Of a DNA stretch of 62,800 nt, positions 8,929 to 20,339 are shown piece after piece. Numbering within the stretch: position 1 is the stretch's first letter; each line of letters opens with the position of its first letter. The translations under genes and the position numbers were made by a program. The stretch is taken from positions 1-62,800 of the forward strand of contig JAHQWH010000012.1 in assembly GCA_029856105.1 (NCBI GenBank), read 5' to 3'. The notes beneath the pieces were generated by a model, which was given only the letters and a program-made list of their open reading frames with translations, did no database searches and was not told where the DNA came from. Source of the DNA: Promethearchaeia archaeon (lineage in GTDB: Archaea > Asgardarchaeota > Lokiarchaeia > Sigyniarchaeales > SOKP01).

Positions 8929-9534
8929 ATGAACGAAAAAACTAATGAAAAAGTTGAAAAAGTCCAATTTGAAGGAATTATTGAGAAGGATAAGGTTATA
9001 ATATCAGACAAGGAATGCATTGAAGAATTTTATAAAGGTTCTTATATTGGTACGCTCGTAAAAAAAGATGACGCTGAAGATATTTTAGTCTTAGAGCCTA
9101 TTGAAGTATTACTCTTGTGCGAAAGAAATCGGATTTTGTTGTATCTTGAAAATGATAAGGAAAATGCTCTATACGATTTTGAAGGTTTGTTGGAGTATTT
9201 TTCGCAATTTGACGATCGTCTGTGGCAAAAATATATTATTTATATGGATTTGCGAAAAAGGGGCTATATTGTTCGAACGGGATATGGAGAAGGCATTGAC
9301 TTTCGAGTGTATAAGCGAGGGGCTGACTTCGAAAAAGATTCCGCCAAGTTCTTGATTTACCCCGTATTTGAAGGGTATCCAATAGATTTGAAAGAATTGG
9401 ACAAAATGTCTCGCGTAGCAATGAGCTCTCGTAAAGACTTGATTGTTGCTACTGTTGATAGATTGAGTAAACCGATATATTACAGCGTGAATAAATTCGA
9501 GATTATTAATAAAATAGAAACTCTCGATGATTAA
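8929..9534 (+). CDS. endA: tRNA-intron endonuclease subunit, probably the structural subunit
   Basis: YMDLRKRGYIVRTG, DFRVY and RVAMSSRKDLIVATVD match the archaeal EndA fold; the catalytic His position reads Ser. Confidence 0.85.
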   Translation: MNEKTNEKVEKVQFEGIIEKDKVIISDKECIEEFYKGSYIGTLVKKDDAEDILVLEPIEVLLLCERNRILLYLENDKENALYDFEGLLEYFSQFDDRLWQKYIIYMDLRKRGYIVRTGYGEGIDFRVYKRGADFEKDSAKFLIYPVFEGYPIDLKELDKMSRVAMSSRKDLIVATVDRLSKPIYYSVNKFEIINKIETLDD

Positions 9535-11197
9535 TATGCCAAATAAATTTGCGTGTGATACTTCAGTAATTTTTAATGGGCAGATTCTTAAATTATTAGA
9601 GGATAATGAGCTAGGAGAGTGTCCTGAAATTTATATTTCCAATATTGTTATCGCCGAAGTTGAGTATAGAACAAATGTTCAAAAAGAAATAGGGTTTTTT
9701 GGATTAAATGTATTAAAACAGTTGAGACAACTTCATGATGAAGGAGAGATAAGGCTTCACGTTGTAGGAAAACGGCCAACACTACAAGAGATAAAAATGA
9801 GTCCGGGGGGGGAGCTTGATGCCCTTATAAGAGACTCTGCTCTTCAAAACAATGCCGTACTTATAACAGCAGACCGAATTCAAGGTGATGTAGGTGTTTT
9901 TGAGGGATTAGAAGTATTATTCGCATGGGAAAAAAAAGCGTTAAAAGAAATCGAACTTTCTTCGCTTAAATTACTAGATTATTTTGATGAAACCACCATG
10001 AGCGTCCATCTTAAACAAGATCTACCACCCTACGCTAAGAAAGGAAGTCCTGGAAACTGGTACCTGCAAAAAATAAGTGAGGACCCCTTAACAACAAAAG
10101 ACATAGAAGATGTCGCGATGGAAATAATTGAAATGGTAAGGGAGGACGAGCGTTCGTTCGTGGAAATAGAGAAATTTGGTGCCGTCGTTGCTCAGTTACG
10201 AGAGTTTAGAATTGTAATAACGCGCCCTCCGTTTTCTAACGTTGTTGAGATTACTGCTGTCCATCCGCTTGTTAATCTCACATTATCAGATTATTCTATT
10301 GATGCTCGATTACATAAAAGATTAGAAAAAGCAGAAGGTATTTTAGTAGCTGGGGCTCCCGGAGCAGGTAAGAGCACATTTTCAGCTGCATTGGCAAATT
10401 TTTATTTAGACCAAAATAAAGTAGTAAAAACTTTAGAAAGCGTCCGAGATTTACAAGTTAGAGCTGAAATTACGCAATACACAAAACTAGAAGGAAGCCT
10501 TGAAAACTCTGCCGATATCCTTCTTTTAGTTAGACCAGATTATACAATATTCGACGAAGTTCGTGTCTTTGAAGATTTTAAGATTTATTCTGATTTTCGA
10601 TTATCGGGCGTTGGAATGGTAGGTGTAGTTCATTCTTCTTCGGCCATCGACGCAGTACAACGGTTTATTGGTCGAATAGAGCTTGGAATGCTCCCGTCAA
10701 TAATAGATACAATTATATTTATTGAAGGAGGTGACATCACTGCTGTTCTAACCCTCAAAATGACCGTTAAGGTACCCCATGGATTTAGAGACAAAGATTT
10801 GGCAAGACCCGTTGTGGAAGTTAGAGATTTTAAAACGGATCGTCTTGCTTACGAAATTTATTCGTTCGGTCAAGATATAGTAATTAATCCAATAAATCCT
10901 ATTGGCCTTAAGGATTCTTTTAAAACCAAAGAGCACTATAAAGGGGGATACCCTACTAAAAAGAGAAAAGAGAAGCGAATTGAGTTAGAGGTTGAAATAA
11001 AAAAGCAAAAAGTAATATTAAAAGCAAAACCGGAATTTGCTAGTAGTAATATTATTGTTTTTGCAGATGATCAGGAAATTTTTACAGGTTCATTGAGTCG
11101 ATCAAGCATTATAACGCTTTCTCTTTCAAACAAAGAAGGAAGAAAAGTTCTAAAAGAATACGATAGAAATAAAAAAATTTATGGAATTTTAAAATAA
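9527..11197 (+). CDS. PIN-domain P-loop ATPase (PINA, MJ1533-like)
   Basis: N-terminal PIN (DTS...E...D...TAD), Walker A GAPGAGKST, RPDYTIFDEVR, GVGMVGVVH, DLARPVVEVRDF. Confidence 0.92.
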   Translation: MINMPNKFACDTSVIFNGQILKLLEDNELGECPEIYISNIVIAEVEYRTNVQKEIGFFGLNVLKQLRQLHDEGEIRLHVVGKRPTLQEIKMSPGGELDALIRDSALQNNAVLITADRIQGDVGVFEGLEVLFAWEKKALKEIELSSLKLLDYFDETTMSVHLKQDLPPYAKKGSPGNWYLQKISEDPLTTKDIEDVAMEIIEMVREDERSFVEIEKFGAVVAQLREFRIVITRPPFSNVVEITAVHPLVNLTLSDYSIDARLHKRLEKAEGILVAGAPGAGKSTFSAALANFYLDQNKVVKTLESVRDLQVRAEITQYTKLEGSLENSADILLLVRPDYTIFDEVRVFEDFKIYSDFRLSGVGMVGVVHSSSAIDAVQRFIGRIELGMLPSIIDTIIFIEGGDITAVLTLKMTVKVPHGFRDKDLARPVVEVRDFKTDRLAYEIYSFGQDIVINPINPIGLKDSFKTKEHYKGGYPTKKRKEKRIELEVEIKKQKVILKAKPEFASSNIIVFADDQEIFTGSLSRSSIITLSLSNKEGRKVLKEYDRNKKIYGILK

Positions 11198-11228: not shown

Positions 11229-11609
11229 TTATTTGGCTAATGCATTTCGAGCTCTATTTATGTCATCAACTCCGATGACCATCTTGTTTTTTTCAGCTAA
11301 GTAGATTAGGTCAATATTAACACCAACATTGCCTATTTTCCGAGCCATCTTCCCACCAGATCCGGGTTTCCCCGCAACATGGCCAATATCCATGACAAGC
11401 ACTTCACGCACAGCACTTACTTTAAAACCTGCTGATTCGAGCACATAACGAGTAACTGTTTCATCTTCAACCAAAATATGAATGACAGCTTCATCATTAA
11501 GGGGAATTCCACATAATCCTTCCATGTTTATGCCATTTTTGCCTAGAACCTCCCCCATATCAGCTAGTGCTCCAGGACGATTTTCCAAAATAACAGCTAT
11601 ATCTTTCAT
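11229..11609 (-). CDS. Tandem ACT-domain protein
   Basis: ENRPGALA...GINM and KPG...GVNIDLIY ACT repeats. Confidence 0.88.
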   Translation of the reverse strand: MKDIAVILENRPGALADMGEVLGKNGINMEGLCGIPLNDEAVIHILVEDETVTRYVLESAGFKVSAVREVLVMDIGHVAGKPGSGGKMARKIGNVGVNIDLIYLAEKNKMVIGVDDINRARNALAK

Positions 11610-11952: not shown

Positions 11953-12708
11953 TTAATCTTGTTCAATCATTTCTTTTATTCTATCAACTAAATTAGGAAG
12001 AACTTCTCCAATCGGCTCAAAAAATCTCAAATCAGCTTCGTCGTCGTAAGGAGTTTCGCCCATATTTAAAATTATTAATTTTGCGCCATTTCTCCACGCA
12101 ATTCCAGGCATACTTGCCGCCGGTGTTACAACTAAAGATGAACCAATTACAAAAAATACATCCGCTTTTTCAGATCTTCTCATTGATTCTTCGAGTTCGC
12201 CCATTGGTAAAGAATCTCCAAAGTTAACTATACTTGAAATAAGCCTCCCCTCACAATTGGGACATTTTGGCTGATTTTTTCGAACTCTTCCCGTCCTATA
12301 TCCTTGTCCCCATTTCATTTTGTCCCATTCCGCATCTTCAAATGTTAATTTTTTTCCACAATTTAAACATTCCATGAAATATAAATTACCGTGGAGTTCT
12401 GCAAGATTTTCGAAAGGAATCCCAGATTTCGCGTGAAGACCATCTACATTCTGAGAGATTAGGTAATCAAGCTTTCCCATCTTTAACAGTTCTACAATTG
12501 CATAATGCCCTTGATTCGGCCGGACTTGGTCCCAAGGAGGAGATTTTGGAGGTGGGAGGCCTTTGTCGCGACGAGTCCATACTCCATCTGGTCCACGATA
12601 ATCCGGTAGACCGCTATCTGTGCTGATCCCCGCACCGGTAAAAACTACTAAGTTTTTAGATTCGAAAATCCAAGTTGCGGCTAGTTCAATTTTTTCTTCT
12701 TGTTCCAT
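11953..12708 (-). CDS. Sir2-family NAD-dependent deacylase, SIRT6/7-like
   Basis: [30 protein letters not shown], ELHGN, two CxxC, GSSL. The likely start is ATG 12708 (track start 12747). Confidence 0.93.
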   Translation of the reverse strand: [251 protein letters not shown]

Positions 12709-12923
12709 ACAAATAAAATAATTTTTGTAAATAAAAAGGTAATCCATTTAGTTCCTTTTACTATTCTTATAAAAATAGATTTGTTATATTGACGTGTATA
12801 TCCAAATTAATCAGTTACTTTATAAAGGTAAATTCTATTTCATTTTTAGGGAATAATTATTCCTAAACCTTTATATTCACGAAGGTAGAAATATAATATA
12901 GGATAATTTAGGTTGAGTGTATA

Positions 12924-13316
12924 TTGACATATGCGTTAAATTTTAATAAAGATGAGATTATAGGCATTCAAATTGATTACGCAAGAATTAATTTTAAACC
13001 AGAACAGTTAAAATTGATAAAAGCAATAACGAACCTCATTTGTGAGCAAATCTCAATACCTGAACTAGCAATGAGAAGTACTACTTGGTTTTCCTTAAAT
13101 GAATGGCAAAATAAACATAATACGCCAGTTACGGAGATTGCTAATTTCCCTATTTCTGACAAATTAAAAGCGTTTAAGGAAATATTTAACATTGGTAAAA
13201 AACGCTTAAAAAATATGTTATCGTATCCTAAAGAACAAAGCGAAATATTAATTGATATCGCGTTTGAAAGAGCCTTTAAATTTTATTTGGGTTATCTCAA
13301 CAGAATCCATAGATAA
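12924..13316 (+). CDS. Hypothetical protein
   Basis: 130-aa ORF with TTG start in a gene-sized gap; no recognised motif. Confidence 0.65.
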   Translation: MTYALNFNKDEIIGIQIDYARINFKPEQLKLIKAITNLICEQISIPELAMRSTTWFSLNEWQNKHNTPVTEIANFPISDKLKAFKEIFNIGKKRLKNMLSYPKEQSEILIDIAFERAFKFYLGYLNRIHR

Positions 13317-13335: not shown

Positions 13336-14070
13336 TTAATTTTTTCTCATTTCCAAGGAAATAATTAAATTCTTTAGATTGTCCTCTAAATTGTAATATT
13401 TTATCATCTCATACGCCCCCTCAATGTCTTTTAAATTAGACAAATTATGAGAATCACATCCAATTGAAACCATAATACCGTTTTTTTTCAATTCATTAAA
13501 AAAGATTTCGTATTTCCGAGAGTAAAAACGAGGATAACTCGAATTAAACTCAATTATTATGTTATATTGTTTTAAAAAACCTAACAAAACATTGAAACCA
13601 CCTAACATAAAAAAAGAAGAGTCAAAATGAGCAAGCCCCAATAGAGGAAATTTATTACTATTACGCCGATCTCTCCTCCAAGTTTCAATTAAGTTTTTAA
13701 TAAAAGCGATTCCTTCAAGGCTTTCAAGGTATTCAAATAAAATTAAATCGAATTTATTGGGATGGACATTATTTATTATATAATTCTCGGAACTGCTTAT
13801 ATCAATCTCGATTCCCTTAAAAAGATTTAATTTTCTATTTTTTTTAAAAATGTAAGCCTGACAGTAAGAAATTTCTTCTAAATACCTTTCAATTTTATCT
13901 AAATTATTAAGTGTGGGTATAATTTTGGATTTCCACGAATTTGAAAAATGGTCAGTAATGCAAATATAATCTAAGCCTAATTTAATGGCTGTTTTTACAA
14001 TTTGATTAATACTGTTCTTACCATCTGAATAAGTGCTATGTATATGTAAATTTAATTTTGGTAAGCTCAT
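13336..14070 (-). CDS. PHP-domain phosphoesterase
   Basis: NLHIHSTYSDG, ITDH, GIE, LAH and GCDSH motifs. Confidence 0.9.
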   Translation of the reverse strand: MSLPKLNLHIHSTYSDGKNSINQIVKTAIKLGLDYICITDHFSNSWKSKIIPTLNNLDKIERYLEEISYCQAYIFKKNRKLNLFKGIEIDISSSENYIINNVHPNKFDLILFEYLESLEGIAFIKNLIETWRRDRRNSNKFPLLGLAHFDSSFFMLGGFNVLLGFLKQYNIIIEFNSSYPRFYSRKYEIFFNELKKNGIMVSIGCDSHNLSNLKDIEGAYEMIKYYNLEDNLKNLIISLEMRKN

Positions 14071-14107
14071 TTTCTCGAAAAAAATTTATTAATTAATTCT
14101 TGAAAAA

Positions 14108-15979
14108 TTAAATACCTACAGATTTAAATTGCCTGTTTCGTTGCCACGACAAAATCCCGCAAAAGAAGAGAGATAATCCAAAAATTATTAGTATTGAAAT
14201 ATAAAGAGCCGTGCCGGATGTACTGGGAATATAGGTAACGGAAGTACCGATAATAAGAATGATATCTTGGATTGATAATAAATTATTGAATAGAAAATAT
14301 ACTATACCAAAAATAATACCACACGCAATAAATTGTATAATTGTGATTACTAAATTTGTAAAATGAATTATTTTAGATCTTTTTTTTCCTAAATCAATGA
14401 TCTGAGCGTTGCCTATATTAATTGCGACCTTTTCTTTATCCATTTTCCTAACGTAAAAATAGGCTAATTCTCTGAGGGGTGTTAAGTCGAGAATTACTGT
14501 CACAATAGTAAATACACACACACCAATCAAAACTCTATTTATTAGTATCAAAATTGGATTCACATATGAAAAGTTATTTATCACCCAAATAAATATTCCT
14601 AATACGGTTAAAAAGAAGAATTTAATACCAGTTAACGTTAAATTAATTGACGATTTATCTGCAATCGTTAATAAATGAAATGCAATTCCAATAATAAAAA
14701 TAACTAACCCTAGAATTAGGGCTTCTATTGAAATAATAACACCCAATATTACGGCAAAAGTCAAAAAACAAATGGTAATAAAAATTGGCAAAAAAGGAAA
14801 AAATGGAGCTTTAAATGGACGATCTAACTCTTTTCTCGTTCGTCTTAATTTTACTGCAGCAAAATTTACAAATGCTAAACCTACGAAATAAATAAAATTA
14901 GTAATTTCAGCAGTAAACCCTATACCAGCGAAAAGTACGAATAAAACGACTAAAATAATAGTGATTAATAAACCTAAAGCAGGCATGTTTTGCCTTTTTT
15001 TCGTTTCCTGAATTTTTTTAGGAATAAACCGATCTCTCGCTAAAGCAGTAATAACGCTGACTGCCGAACCTAACGCGGCATTTATTGCTATTAACGTCGA
15101 AATAATAGCAGCAAGAACCATAAAATAAAATCCAAATGGGCCAAGAACACTTTCAAACACATTAGCTAATAAGACGGGGTTTTCAGTTAATTCAGTTGGA
15201 TTTTCTCCTAAGTTTATCAATGCAATGAAAGTAATCAATAAATATATAATTATTGTCAATAAAATAGCATAAATATTAGTTTTTGGAATATTTTTAGAAG
15301 GATTTTTTAAATCGGGATTTAAATACGCTAAATTTGAAGTTATAGAAGTAAATAAAATAAATAACAATAAAAAAGCGGGTATTATACCTTCAAATTTTAT
15401 TTGAGTAAGAACAATATTTGGATTTGTGAATGGCGTTATTATCAATCCAAATAATATAAAGAACGCAAACATCCCAATTAATACGAGCGTAAATATTAAT
15501 AACGATTTAATTGCGATTTTTTGAGTTCTGAAAATTACTAAACTTGTTAATATTATAGGTAAAATTGCAATTATCGTAATAAGAGTATTGGAAGTTTGAA
15601 TATTTAATTTAATAAAAACCTCGTTAAATACTAAAGCAAAGATTTGCGCTGAAAAGGAACATGTAGCGACGTTAGCAATCCATAAAAAAAAGCCAATTAT
15701 AAACGCTAAGAACCCTCCAATACCTTCCTTACCGAAGTTGTAAGCACCTCCCGCAATAGGTAAACTAGTTGAAAGTTCAGCGTAATTTAATCCAGTAAAA
15801 AATATTAAAATGCCTCCCAAAATTAAACTTAGTAATATACCGGATCCTGCGTATTCGATTCCTAAACCTAATAATACGAATATAGACCCCCCTATTCCAC
15901 ATCCAACACCATATATTATCCCTTGGGACAATTTTAATGTTCTTTTTGGCAGAACTTCTTTAGGTTTAGTCTCATTCAT
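14108..15979 (-). CDS. APC-family amino acid permease with extra C-terminal TM segments
   Basis: GIGGSIF, YAELSTSLPIAGGAY, KNPSKNIP, ALARDRFIP and RPFKAPFFP motifs. Confidence 0.9.
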   Translation of the reverse strand: MNETKPKEVLPKRTLKLSQGIIYGVGCGIGGSIFVLLGLGIEYAGSGILLSLILGGILIFFTGLNYAELSTSLPIAGGAYNFGKEGIGGFLAFIIGFFLWIANVATCSFSAQIFALVFNEVFIKLNIQTSNTLITIIAILPIILTSLVIFRTQKIAIKSLLIFTLVLIGMFAFFILFGLIITPFTNPNIVLTQIKFEGIIPAFLLLFILFTSITSNLAYLNPDLKNPSKNIPKTNIYAILLTIIIYLLITFIALINLGENPTELTENPVLLANVFESVLGPFGFYFMVLAAIISTLIAINAALGSAVSVITALARDRFIPKKIQETKKRQNMPALGLLITIILVVLFVLFAGIGFTAEITNFIYFVGLAFVNFAAVKLRRTRKELDRPFKAPFFPFLPIFITICFLTFAVILGVIISIEALILGLVIFIIGIAFHLLTIADKSSINLTLTGIKFFFLTVLGIFIWVINNFSYVNPILILINRVLIGVCVFTIVTVILDLTPLRELAYFYVRKMDKEKVAINIGNAQIIDLGKKRSKIIHFTNLVITIIQFIACGIIFGIVYFLFNNLLSIQDIILIIGTSVTYIPSTSGTALYISILIIFGLSLFFCGILSWQRNRQFKSVGI

Positions 15980-18353: not shown

Positions 18354-20339
18354 ATGATTGATGTACAACTTGGAAATTATCCAATTATTATTAAACCAAA
18401 TTTGGGTAATCCCATTTTATTGAACTTAAGAGACTACAAAAATCGAGACCAAGTTCCATTTAATAACTTGTCGTTCGAAGCTCTAGTAATAGCAACTCCG
18501 TCTCATTCAACAAAAAAAGTTTTAGAACACTTCCATTTGAACATATTTATCCAGCCAATTTTAAAAGATAACGGCGATTTTTTGGAAAGACGAGGAGATC
18601 TAATCGCTTTACATATGGTTGAAATCGAAAAAATTGAAAAATTAGATTTTAGAGATCAGCCCGTTTTAGAGGAGTTAAATTGCGTGGTATGGGATATTAA
18701 TAATTGTGTTTTTCAATTTGACGATGTTTTTGGAAAAAGAAGCACGCTTTACAGAGTAAGGTTTCAAATACAAGATATTAAAAATATTGAAAATTTGTTA
18801 AAAGCCTCTAAAAGAGATTGTTTATTGTTTGATATAGTTCATGATGTCCCAAACATGAGCGAGAATAAAGTTAATTACCATAGTATCGCTATTTACGATA
18901 AAGATTGGAAAGATTTTAGCTTTATTCACGCTACAGATCTTCATATTGCAAGGAGAAATGACTTTATTTTAAATTATTTAAAACAAAATGTAAAGGCTAA
19001 GGTAAAAAATTGCGGTGGTAACGAAAAAAAAATATCAAAAATAAACAAATTTATTCTAACGCGAGATTTTGAACTCAAGGAAGAATTCCAAGAAGACAGA
19101 ATCGAAGAATTAAGAACAGCAAAATATAATTTTAATTATAATCTGAGAAAATTAATTGATTTTGCCAATAATAAAGTTTCGCAAAATAATTTAGATTTCG
19201 TTCTAATGACGGGTGATTTAATAGATTATCTTAATATCGCGAGAGGTAATTATCATTACAAGAATAATTTTCATGTTTTTATCGATATATTACTTGGATT
19301 GAATAAGGGTTTAAAAGAACCTCCCTATTTAGGAAACGATGAGGAGTTCGTTAATAAACAAGAAATTTTGGTTCCGATTTTTACCACTATTGGAAATCAC
19401 GACTATCGTAAAAACCACTACGGCATCAAATTTGGCCATGTTCATAAAATATTTGGTTTGACCCATTCAGATGTGAAAGGATATTACGATATCAAATTTT
19501 TTAATTACTTAACTGTCCTTCGAGCTAAAGATAAATTTTTAAAAGATTATTTTAGGTATATAAACCCTAATCTTAATTTTAAGCTTAAAATAGGAGATCA
19601 ATATAATTTCATATTTCTTGAGACAGGTCAGGATTCAATCGCAGATATGCATGACTTATTAAAAGGTGGTCCAAGTACAAAAGGAATTAAAGAATATCAA
19701 GTTGACTTATTACGTGCATATATAAGATTGGGTCATAATGAGAAAATTATTGTTGTCATGCATACACCTCCAGTTTCTCCCAATCTTAGTTATCTTAAAA
19801 GAAGAAAATTTAGAAGAAAATTTAAGATAAAAGGTAGACCGCTAAGTTGGTCAGATTTTTACGAAAGTAATTTAAGAAAATACAATGATACTGGAAGGTT
19901 AGATATGGTTTTAAACCTAAAGTACCAAACAATAATGTATAATTGGGCTACGCTTTTGAGAATTTTTACGGGATCAGATAAGATCATTAGGAGGAAAATA
20001 GACTTCGTTATGTGTGGCCACACACATACTTTAAAAGAGTATCGGTTAAAAGAAGCAAAAGAAACCGATCGAATAAATTTTGGTTTTTGGTTTTTCCCAA
20101 TTTATATCGAAGTACCTTGTGAAATTTACACTTCCCGGTATCGAGATAAATTTAAAGAAATTAAAGATCCTTTTGAACTAAAGGCTTGGTTTGACGTAAA
20201 TAAGCCCTTCGTATTTCAAACCCAAGCACTCGGTCCGCTTTCAGCAAAGTTCAAATTTAAACCACCAGGTTTTAGATATTATATTATTAAAAATAATCAA
20301 ATGGTTAGAGCTAAGGTCTTTTCATTACATTTAAAGTGA
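18354..20339 (+). CDS. Calcineurin-like metallophosphoesterase
   Basis: TDLH, TGDLID, GNHD, MHTPP and GHTH motifs. Confidence 0.88.
   Translation: MIDVQLGNYPIIIKPNLGNPILLNLRDYKNRDQVPFNNLSFEALVIATPSHSTKKVLEHFHLNIFIQPILKDNGDFLERRGDLIALHMVEIEKIEKLDFRDQPVLEELNCVVWDINNCVFQFDDVFGKRSTLYRVRFQIQDIKNIENLLKASKRDCLLFDIVHDVPNMSENKVNYHSIAIYDKDWKDFSFIHATDLHIARRNDFILNYLKQNVKAKVKNCGGNEKKISKINKFILTRDFELKEEFQEDRIEELRTAKYNFNYNLRKLIDFANNKVSQNNLDFVLMTGDLIDYLNIARGNYHYKNNFHVFIDILLGLNKGLKEPPYLGNDEEFVNKQEILVPIFTTIGNHDYRKNHYGIKFGHVHKIFGLTHSDVKGYYDIKFFNYLTVLRAKDKFLKDYFRYINPNLNFKLKIGDQYNFIFLETGQDSIADMHDLLKGGPSTKGIKEYQVDLLRAYIRLGHNEKIIVVMHTPPVSPNLSYLKRRKFRRKFKIKGRPLSWSDFYESNLRKYNDTGRLDMVLNLKYQTIMYNWATLLRIFTGSDKIIRRKIDFVMCGHTHTLKEYRLKEAKETDRINFGFWFFPIYIEVPCEIYTSRYRDKFKEIKDPFELKAWFDVNKPFVFQTQALGPLSAKFKFKPPGFRYYIIKNNQMVRAKVFSLHLK

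Follow-up and report, generated by a model that had tools for sequence, protein, structure and literature searches.

The stretch of DNA analysed here (the window) comprises the first 62,800 nucleotides of contig JAHQWH010000012.1 from a Promethearchaeia archaeon of the Asgard phylum (assembly GCA_029856105.1) and carries on its minus strand, at 11953..12708 including the stop codon, a gene for a short-linker (class IV-type) sirtuin of 251 amino acids. We delimited the gene by the translation of the open reading frame (ORF), the Pfam SIR2 domain, the lengths of its homologs and the starts of its relatives. The Pfam profile (PF02146) matched with an E-value of 6.1e-34 (118 bits against a cut-off of 24) in two stretches, leaving profile positions 27-57 unmatched. 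In the predicted protein, the nicotinamide adenine dinucleotide (NAD)-binding motif GAGIS (residues 25-29, 12622..12636, on the minus strand like all features of the gene) occupies invariant or nearly invariant columns of alignments of 152 and 65 sequences. It is followed by the catalytic core QNVDGLH ... ELHGN (12391..12453) with N87, D89 and the putative general-base His106, these three residues being invariant in 152 of 152 aligned sequences. The full set of G25, A26, G27, S29, Q86, N87, D89 and H106 is present, and the zinc-binding module Cys114-x2-Cys117 ... Cys149-x2-Cys152 (12253..12369) is complete, its four cysteines being invariant in the alignments.

GAGIS and QNVD are joined by a linker of only 56 residues (residues 30-85, 12454..12621), which the linker lengths and the structural model place where canonical sirtuins have a longer helical-module segment. 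The same spacing is 73-75 residues in canonical sirtuins, including the other four of the same genome, and 55-57 residues in Asgard short-linker, bacterial short-linker and eukaryotic class IV proteins; compared with the canonical form, the helical module is shorter by about 17 residues. The absence of the helical module of CobB-type sirtuins had been proposed in the first-pass annotation, a reading of the sequence alone, and the loss of most of this module is borne out by the linker length, by a single-stretch alignment to SIRT6 and by the model. In a comparison with CobB profiles, suggested there as a check, the CobB-type equivalog models of NCBIfam (NF040867, NF001752, NF010736 and others) all scored under their curated cut-offs and matched in two stretches, the best scores being 208.7 against a cut-off of 243 and 206.7 against 320. 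Furthermore, the 31-residue segment between the two CxxC pairs of the zinc module (12265..12357) contains an insertion that spacer lengths, consensus and alignment mark as Asgard-specific. The spacer measures 30-31 residues in all 21 Asgard rows of our alignment, the window protein included, as against 12 in the bacterial short-linker family, 21-28 in most eukaryotes and 17-23 in canonical sirtuins. Its consensus in Asgard archaea is W-D...G-x-G-Y-R-T...N-Q-P, and by sequence comparison this conserved insertion appears to have no counterpart in the eukaryotic or bacterial members of the family. The spacing between the catalytic N and H residues (19 versus 17) was also considered as a class IV marker and was dropped, as 19 is seen in canonical relatives too.

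The structural comparison singled out SIRT6. Among PDB sequences, phmmer gave human SIRT6 as the best match (E 6e-51), with a single uninterrupted alignment over residues 3-243; the values were 6e-42 for Sir2Af2, 1e-30 for SIRT7, 2e-23 for SIRT5 and 2e-19 for SIRT3, and Sir2Af2 and Sir2Tm aligned only in two pieces. The AlphaFold2 model, built on the 65-sequence alignment, had a mean predicted local distance difference test score of 94.5 and shows in the linker one short helix at residues 43-48, then a loop. Searched with Foldseek against the PDB, the model retrieved human SIRT6 as each of the top 32 matches (template modelling score 0.82-0.85, 38% identity), and Sir2Af2 and Sir2Tm ranked behind (0.66-0.74). 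The likeness to SIRT6 is far above chance, and the SIRT6-like motifs first noticed in 11953-12708 are indeed present, in the frame that opens with the ATG at 12708.

Sequence comparison identifies the gene as the ortholog of LoSIR2b (GNAMCCOK_01652) of Candidatus Lokiarchaeum ossiferum B35, i.e. as a member of the Asgard "SIR2b" clade, because the two proteins are 60% identical (over 247 residues) and each genome has a single short-linker sirtuin. The B35 genome in our set has three SIR2 genes in all. By their N- and C-terminal motifs they correspond to LoSIR2a, LoSIR2b and LoSIR2c, and LoSIR2b is the sole short-linker gene among them; the identity of the window protein to LoSIR2a, to LoSIR2c and to the canonical paralogs of its own genome is 30-35%. 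In a preprint of July 2026 (bioRxiv 10.64898/2026.07.02.735847), LoSIR2b progressively removed acetyl groups from a Loki HLoB.2 tail peptide and from a yeast H4K16ac peptide, with NAD+ being required, and on a fluorogenic substrate both LoSIR2a and LoSIR2b showed activity comparable to human SIRT1. The same preprint reports that Loki and Hod SIR2 catalytic domains combined with a yeast targeting domain restored silencing in sir2-delta yeast, and that of the three Loki-B35 paralogs LoSIR2b was the one active on histone tails; its supplementary table prints the three LoSIR2 sequences, of which LoSIR2b is the one with the short linker. Earlier, Grau-Bove et al. 2022 (bioRxiv 10.1101/2021.11.30.470311) had obtained a well-supported Asgard sirtuin clade of Heimdall and Loki sequences as sister to eukaryotic SIRT7, with SIRT6 nested among the eukaryotic sequences. 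The kinship of Asgard sirtuins with SIRT6/7 and the histone-tail activity of LoSIR2b are already published, and the gene in the window adds one more ortholog. The idea that the protein might have been overlooked had to be given up, in view of both studies and of the "sirtuin 6" names that JGI already assigns to members.

Those names lead to the question of whether the enzyme would resemble SIRT6 in function as well. In a narrow sense this would mean an enzyme that is weak on acetyl groups and favours lysine carrying long-chain fatty acyl groups, or a mono-ADP-ribosyltransferase. SIRT6 being the best match in sequence and in fold is in keeping with such a role, as are the label "mono-ADP-ribosyltransferase sirtuin 6" that the JGI pipeline gives to several close homologs and a bacterial relative that adjoins PARP and Macro genes. 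When orthology to SIRT6 was examined by the zinc-finger insert and the terminal extensions, however, the protein was found to carry neither the Cys3-x10-Cys4 insert nor the extensions. The JGI name is an automatic orthology label with no test behind it, and LoSIR2b is a robust deacetylase on short peptides, comparable to SIRT1 and unlike SIRT6; a narrowly SIRT6-like role is improbable in our judgement. SIRT6 itself is a weak peptide deacetylase, unlike LoSIR2b. Because the terminal extensions and the zinc-finger insert are lacking and LoSIR2b deacetylates peptides vigorously, the protein would be a generic sirtuin deacetylase inside a SIRT6-shaped body rather than an enzyme that works like SIRT6.

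To describe the distribution of the short-linker type, we scanned 400 genomes of the phylum at a threshold of E <= 1e-45, which isolates this type because canonical paralogs reach only about 1e-26 to 1e-30. A short-linker sirtuin was found in 183 of the 400 genomes, with 115 of 134 genomes in the own family and 36 of 41 in the own genus; several other Asgard families carry it and some are entirely without it. Proteins of the same genus are 73-94% identical to the window protein, those of the same family 64-79% and more distant ones 44-63%. The closest database proteins (73-95% identity) come from metagenomes and metagenome-assembled genomes (MAGs) named Lokiarchaeota, Promethearchaeota, Hod-, Hermod-, Thor- and Heimdallarchaeota, and a second search also returned members in Kariarchaeaceae, Helarchaeota, Freyarchaeota, Jordarchaeum, Borrarchaeum and Hodarchaeum. 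The genome itself has five sirtuin genes, the short-linker one and four canonical ones with 33-35% identity to it. At the family level the order PHP-domain gene, sirtuin, PIN-ATPase gene is kept; it is lost in more distant Asgard lineages. Because of the wide distribution, the identity that tracks kinship and the conserved local synteny, we conclude that the gene is pan-Asgard, old and vertically inherited and is no recent import. A recent bacterial or eukaryotic origin by transfer, or contamination with a foreign contig, might be considered given that short-linker sirtuins occur in bacteria too and that transfers happen, as exemplified by a Pyrinomonadaceae copy with an Asgard-type zinc insert. 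Such an origin is, however, effectively refuted and retains a minimal probability: the G+C content of the gene region (about 0.32) matches that of the window (about 31%), the ortholog occurs in most genomes of genus and family with identity and synteny as described, and the protein falls in an Asgard-only subclade. A grouping with class III or class U sirtuins, or within a bacterial clade of recent transfer, was not what we found, the gene belonging to a pan-Asgard vertical lineage. Tandem short-linker duplicates, 66-76% identical to the window protein, occur in several genomes of the same family, for example at G175:C323:18475-19212 and 19320-20066; further such loci are G170:C9, G182:C79, G226:C29, G217:C18, G221:C271, G214:C190, G205:C5, G216:C89 and G194:C9.

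An exhaustive HMMER search of 1.84 billion representative proteins yielded 649 at E <= 1e-30. Most of the top 150 of these 649 belong to one clade of long proteins, the majority of them metagenomic and without a source name, in which every source-named member is eukaryotic (fish SIRT6, lycophyte SRT1-type, chytrid, Willaertia, Pyxidicula and an MMETSP protist). Several prokaryote-sized lineages were also present among the matches. One of these, that of the protein P0126, is part of a large bacterial family whose members measure about 230-235 residues and have the same linker deletion; those with a name come from Desulfobacteraceae and from a Deltaproteobacterium, the latter on a contig of 3.03 Mb. 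By gene content, two contigs from the P0126 subgroup are plainly bacterial, one with a sigma-54 activator and CheR/CheW/MCP genes and the other with DUF1570/TPR, RNase D and, next to the sirtuin, a WGR-PARP and Macro pair. A review (PMC8603916) had earlier noted bacterial sirtuins of a class IV-like type. With 183 of 400 Asgard genomes and a large bacterial family carrying it, class IV is not restricted to eukaryotes, and the short-linker architecture is no eukaryotic signature but common to a sizeable bacterial family.

Some of these relatives deserve mention in their own right. At the bacterial locus L147 a short-linker sirtuin (10001-10702) lies about 3 kb from a WGR-PARP_reg-PARP gene (13741-15177), which is followed by a Macro-domain gene (15203-15946), and the cluster may be an ADP-ribosylation writer/eraser set. 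A 4.9-kb contig of a Pyrinomonadaceae MAG (L010:3002-3736) encodes a short-linker sirtuin with the Asgard-type 31-residue zinc insertion, which is probably a transfer out of Asgard archaea or a binning error. Many bacterial matches of the contig scan were at first taken as short-linker; when the linkers were measured, only L010-L012 were short among the matches listed. Fused forms also occur, with N-terminal extensions of 160-300 residues before the short-linker core (P0122, 408 residues; P0129, 481 residues; P0130, 537 residues), one of the extensions being labelled V-type ATPase subunit H-like by JGI.

The final phylogeny was calculated from a balanced set of 76 sirtuin cores: 21 Asgard, drawn from every named lineage, 12 bacterial short-linker, 7 unnamed short, 22 eukaryotic, 10 bacterial long-linker and 4 canonical Asgard paralogs. 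The alignment was made with MAFFT L-INS-i and the tree with IQ-TREE under LG+C20+F+G4 with posterior mean site frequencies, support being given as ultrafast bootstrap / Shimodaira-Hasegawa-like approximate likelihood ratio. Columns filled in under half of the rows were dropped, by which the linker trait itself was removed from the tree data. The eukaryotic rows consist of representatives that are closer to SIRT6 than to SIRT7, with none from classes I and II. In the search for a SIRT7 anchor, N-terminal offsets like those of SIRT7 drew attention to four eukaryotic representatives, but each of them was a better match to SIRT6; no clear SIRT7 ortholog was present within the top 150 of the 649 representatives. 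In the maximum-likelihood tree the short-linker proteins, including fish SIRT6 and plant SRT1, form one clade (100/99) apart from the canonical prokaryotic forms, with the long-linker P0128 at its base and bacterial long-linker sirtuins as the nearest outgroup. The basal branches of the short-linker clade are Asgard sequences, which are paraphyletic: the Asgard-only subclade containing the window protein (100/99) branches first, followed by the remaining lineages including LoSIR2b; the placement of the protein in this subclade is robust. All 22 eukaryotes form one clade (100/99) with a long stem (0.58), whose immediate sister is the bacterial P0126 subgroup (97/80); next out are P0125 (98/89), the Desulfobacterota-type family (93/72) and the Pyrinomonadaceae copy.

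When eukaryotes and Asgard archaea were constrained together with the bacterial forms outside, the cost was 15.4 log-likelihood units, and the approximately unbiased (AU) test did not reject this topology (p-AU 0.208); in an earlier quick tree of 106 rows, Asgard archaea and eukaryotes had been sister groups. Both a bacterial subgroup and the Asgard archaea are compatible with the data as sister of the eukaryotes, and the origin of SIRT6/7 is not settled because the AU test keeps eukaryotes with Asgard archaea (p = 0.21). The suggestion of an Asgard relative of SIRT6/7 holds as far as the protein lies within the class IV-type clade (100/99), and goes too far where it would imply ancestry of SIRT6/7. 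Likewise, loss of the helix bundle fails as a eukaryotic signature, given the large bacterial family with the same deletion, the bacterial sister of the eukaryotes and an Asgard alternative that is not rejected. One may tentatively go further and regard the SIR2b lineage as the direct vertical ancestor of eukaryotic SIRT6/SIRT7, with the bacterial short-linker forms as secondary acquisitions and the basic-rich zinc insertion (W-D...GxGYRT) as an early histone-DNA docking element analogous to the zinc-finger insert of SIRT6. Asgard paraphyly at the base of the clade and the AU result are compatible with this scenario and the bacterial sister of the eukaryotes speaks against it; on balance we hold it to be doubtful, and its vertical-origin half has already been proposed in print. 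A Heimdallarchaeota MAG contains two short-linker sirtuins, P0138 and P0320 (locus tags INQ03_18640 and INQ03_20500), one of which has diverged strongly: its GPDGVWT motif contains a deletion, and no relative exceeds 49% identity to it. In FastTree, P0138 stood beside the eukaryotes; this placement was rejected, as P0138 is a divergent second copy whose relatives are ordinary Asgard sequences and it joins these under the mixture model, and it was omitted from the final tree as a long branch.

While the fold, the motifs, the orthology and the distribution are established here, we infer activity and substrates in this organism. The gene product is very probably an active deacetylase/deacylase of protein lysines that depends on NAD+ and belongs to the Asgard SIR2b lineage, a compact SIRT6-like branch; its likeliest substrates would be the tails of chromatin proteins. 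By established sirtuin chemistry, the Rossmann domain would bind NAD+ through GAGIS, Q86, N87 and D89, and the acyl-lysine of the substrate would attack C1' of the nicotinamide ribose with His106 as the general base. The expected products are nicotinamide, 2'-O-acyl-ADP-ribose and the free lysine, and the Cys4 zinc module would hold the small domain together. Because of the orthology with LoSIR2b, lysine-rich tails of histones and possibly of Alba are the presumed targets; the genome offers three histone genes (66-73 residues) and three Alba genes as candidates.

Several observations weigh against this reading. A long-tailed histone was not found in the 92%-complete assembly, and the sole HLoB-like histone core is cut off by the end of its contig at the very place of a tail. 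With 60% identity, substrate choice could differ from that of LoSIR2b, whose function is documented in a preprint; the conserved neighbours among the related loci include no chromatin gene; and in another survey class IV enzymes showed little activity on free acyl-peptides (PMC10652111). As to the HLoB-like core itself (G000:C136:28820-28978, minus strand, locus L151), it reads YIAKAPIRRLMK..., with the position of the N-terminal tail beyond the contig end, and in place of a normal alpha-3 helix it closes with the aberrant ...KADKRKIFSNSGICANV.

The immediate neighbours of the sirtuin are housekeeping genes (tRNA-splicing endonuclease, PIN-ATPase, ACT protein, PHP phosphoesterase and amino-acid permease), and no conserved operon partner beyond the family-level synteny was found among the related loci. 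This setting, with no chromatin gene linked, would also suit a housekeeping protein deacylase in a CobB-like role, acting mainly on metabolic enzymes (e.g. acyl-CoA synthetases) or on translation and other proteins and being no chromatin enzyme, as would the missing long-tailed histone and the bacterial relatives of the same architecture, which live without histones. We regard this role as possible but rather unlikely, considering that the CobB equivalog models all stay below their cut-offs, that the four canonical sirtuins of the genome could fill a CobB-like role and that the ortholog LoSIR2b is the very paralog of Loki-B35 that works on histone tails. Moreover, the SIR2 domain together with the PIN-ATPase nearby could recall a defence-type SIR2 NADase (Thoeris ThsA, DSR or SIR2-HerA-like) depleting NAD+ on infection. 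This can practically be dismissed, since no PADLOC model matches, the full deacylase motif set, the zinc module and the SIRT6-like fold are present, no sensor or effector partner was found as a domain or as a gene in the neighbourhood, and the PIN-ATPase gene is convergent with the sirtuin gene and its neighbour at the family level only. A protein lysine deacylase of the SIR2b lineage remains our preferred reading.

The full ORF of the sirtuin on the minus strand spans 11953-12747 and counts 264 residues from its first ATG, whereas the internal ATG at 12708 gives the 251 residues used here. We prefer the start at 12708 because homologs in databases are mostly 249-252 residues long, the N-terminus ME(L/Q)EEKIELA conserved among relatives begins at this ATG, stop codons occur within the 13 codons upstream in most close (same-genus) relatives, and a TTTTTATTT box lies upstream. 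The in-frame extension of 13 codons from the earlier ATG (12709..12747), interrupted in these relatives and with unconserved residues, is probably not translated. The TTTTTATTT element (12729..12737, minus strand), 21-29 nucleotides before the ATG, is kept in position and sequence across same-genus and same-family loci and is a candidate archaeal TATA box, in which case the mRNA would be leaderless or nearly so. Scans for sigma-70 promoters and terminators gave sites no more frequent than in shuffled sequences and are not applicable to archaea.

Upstream of the sirtuin gene, between it and the PHP gene, an ORF of 130 residues without a Pfam match lies on the opposite strand (12924-13316, plus); it is conserved in place in 18 of 38 related loci with 41-92% identity and is probably a real gene. 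On the other side, between sirtuin and PIN-ATPase, an ACT-domain gene (11229-11609, minus) is present at that position in only 5 of the 38 related loci, which suggests that it was inserted there recently among the closest relatives. The PIN-ATPase gene (9527-11197, plus; 556 residues, PIN domain and T2SSE-like ATPase) is overlapped at its start by 8 nucleotides of the tRNA-splicing endonuclease gene (8929-9534, plus), which suggests co-translation of the two. The amino-acid permease (14108-15979, minus; 623 residues) has a hydrophobic C-terminal extension of roughly 190 residues past the Pfam permease domain.

SIRT6/7-type sirtuins are central chromatin regulators in eukaryotes, and their prokaryotic relatives bear on the origin of histone-based regulation. 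This point has already been made, with the Asgard link in 2022 and with the Lokiarchaeum ortholog that erases acetyl marks on Asgard histone tails. To it we add that the compact architecture is common to a sizeable bacterial family, that the immediate sister of the eukaryotes is not settled between Asgard archaea and bacteria, and that the Asgard members have a conserved zinc-module insertion not found in eukaryotic or bacterial ones.

Among known systems, LoSIR2b resembles the window protein most closely in build (253 versus 251 residues, the same short linker and a zinc segment of 30-31 residues with W-D...GxGYRT), but it belongs to a different family of the same order and the local gene context is not in common; Loki-B35 has nine histone genes including the long-tailed HLoB, whereas three short histones were found in our assembly. 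The description of the Asgard clade of Grau-Bove et al., in which Heimdall and Loki sequences stand with class IV eukaryotes, fits the pan-Asgard short-linker lineage of the gene. Bacterial short-linker sirtuins (Desulfobacterota, Dehalococcoidia and bacteria of unassigned phylum) share the linker deletion, the RRDKGLPP motif and the clade at 47-56% identity, but have 12 residues between the zinc Cys pairs, without the Asgard insertion. The canonical sirtuins Sir2Af2, Sir2Tm, CobB, LoSIR2a and LoSIR2c have the chemistry, the Rossmann core and the Cys4 zinc module in common with the protein and differ by 17-19 extra helical-module residues, by an identity of 30-35%, by hidden Markov model matches in two stretches and by the CobB models, which it fails to reach. 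With human SIRT6 (PDB 3K35, 3PKI, 8G57) and eukaryotic class IV proteins it shares the deletion of the helical module and a collinear core of 38-41% identity, but at 251 versus 355 residues it has no N- or C-terminal extensions, and where animal SIRT6 carries the Cys3-x10-Cys4 zinc-finger insert, which the Asgard proteins lack, it has a plain CxxC second pair and the Asgard-specific insertion before Cys3.

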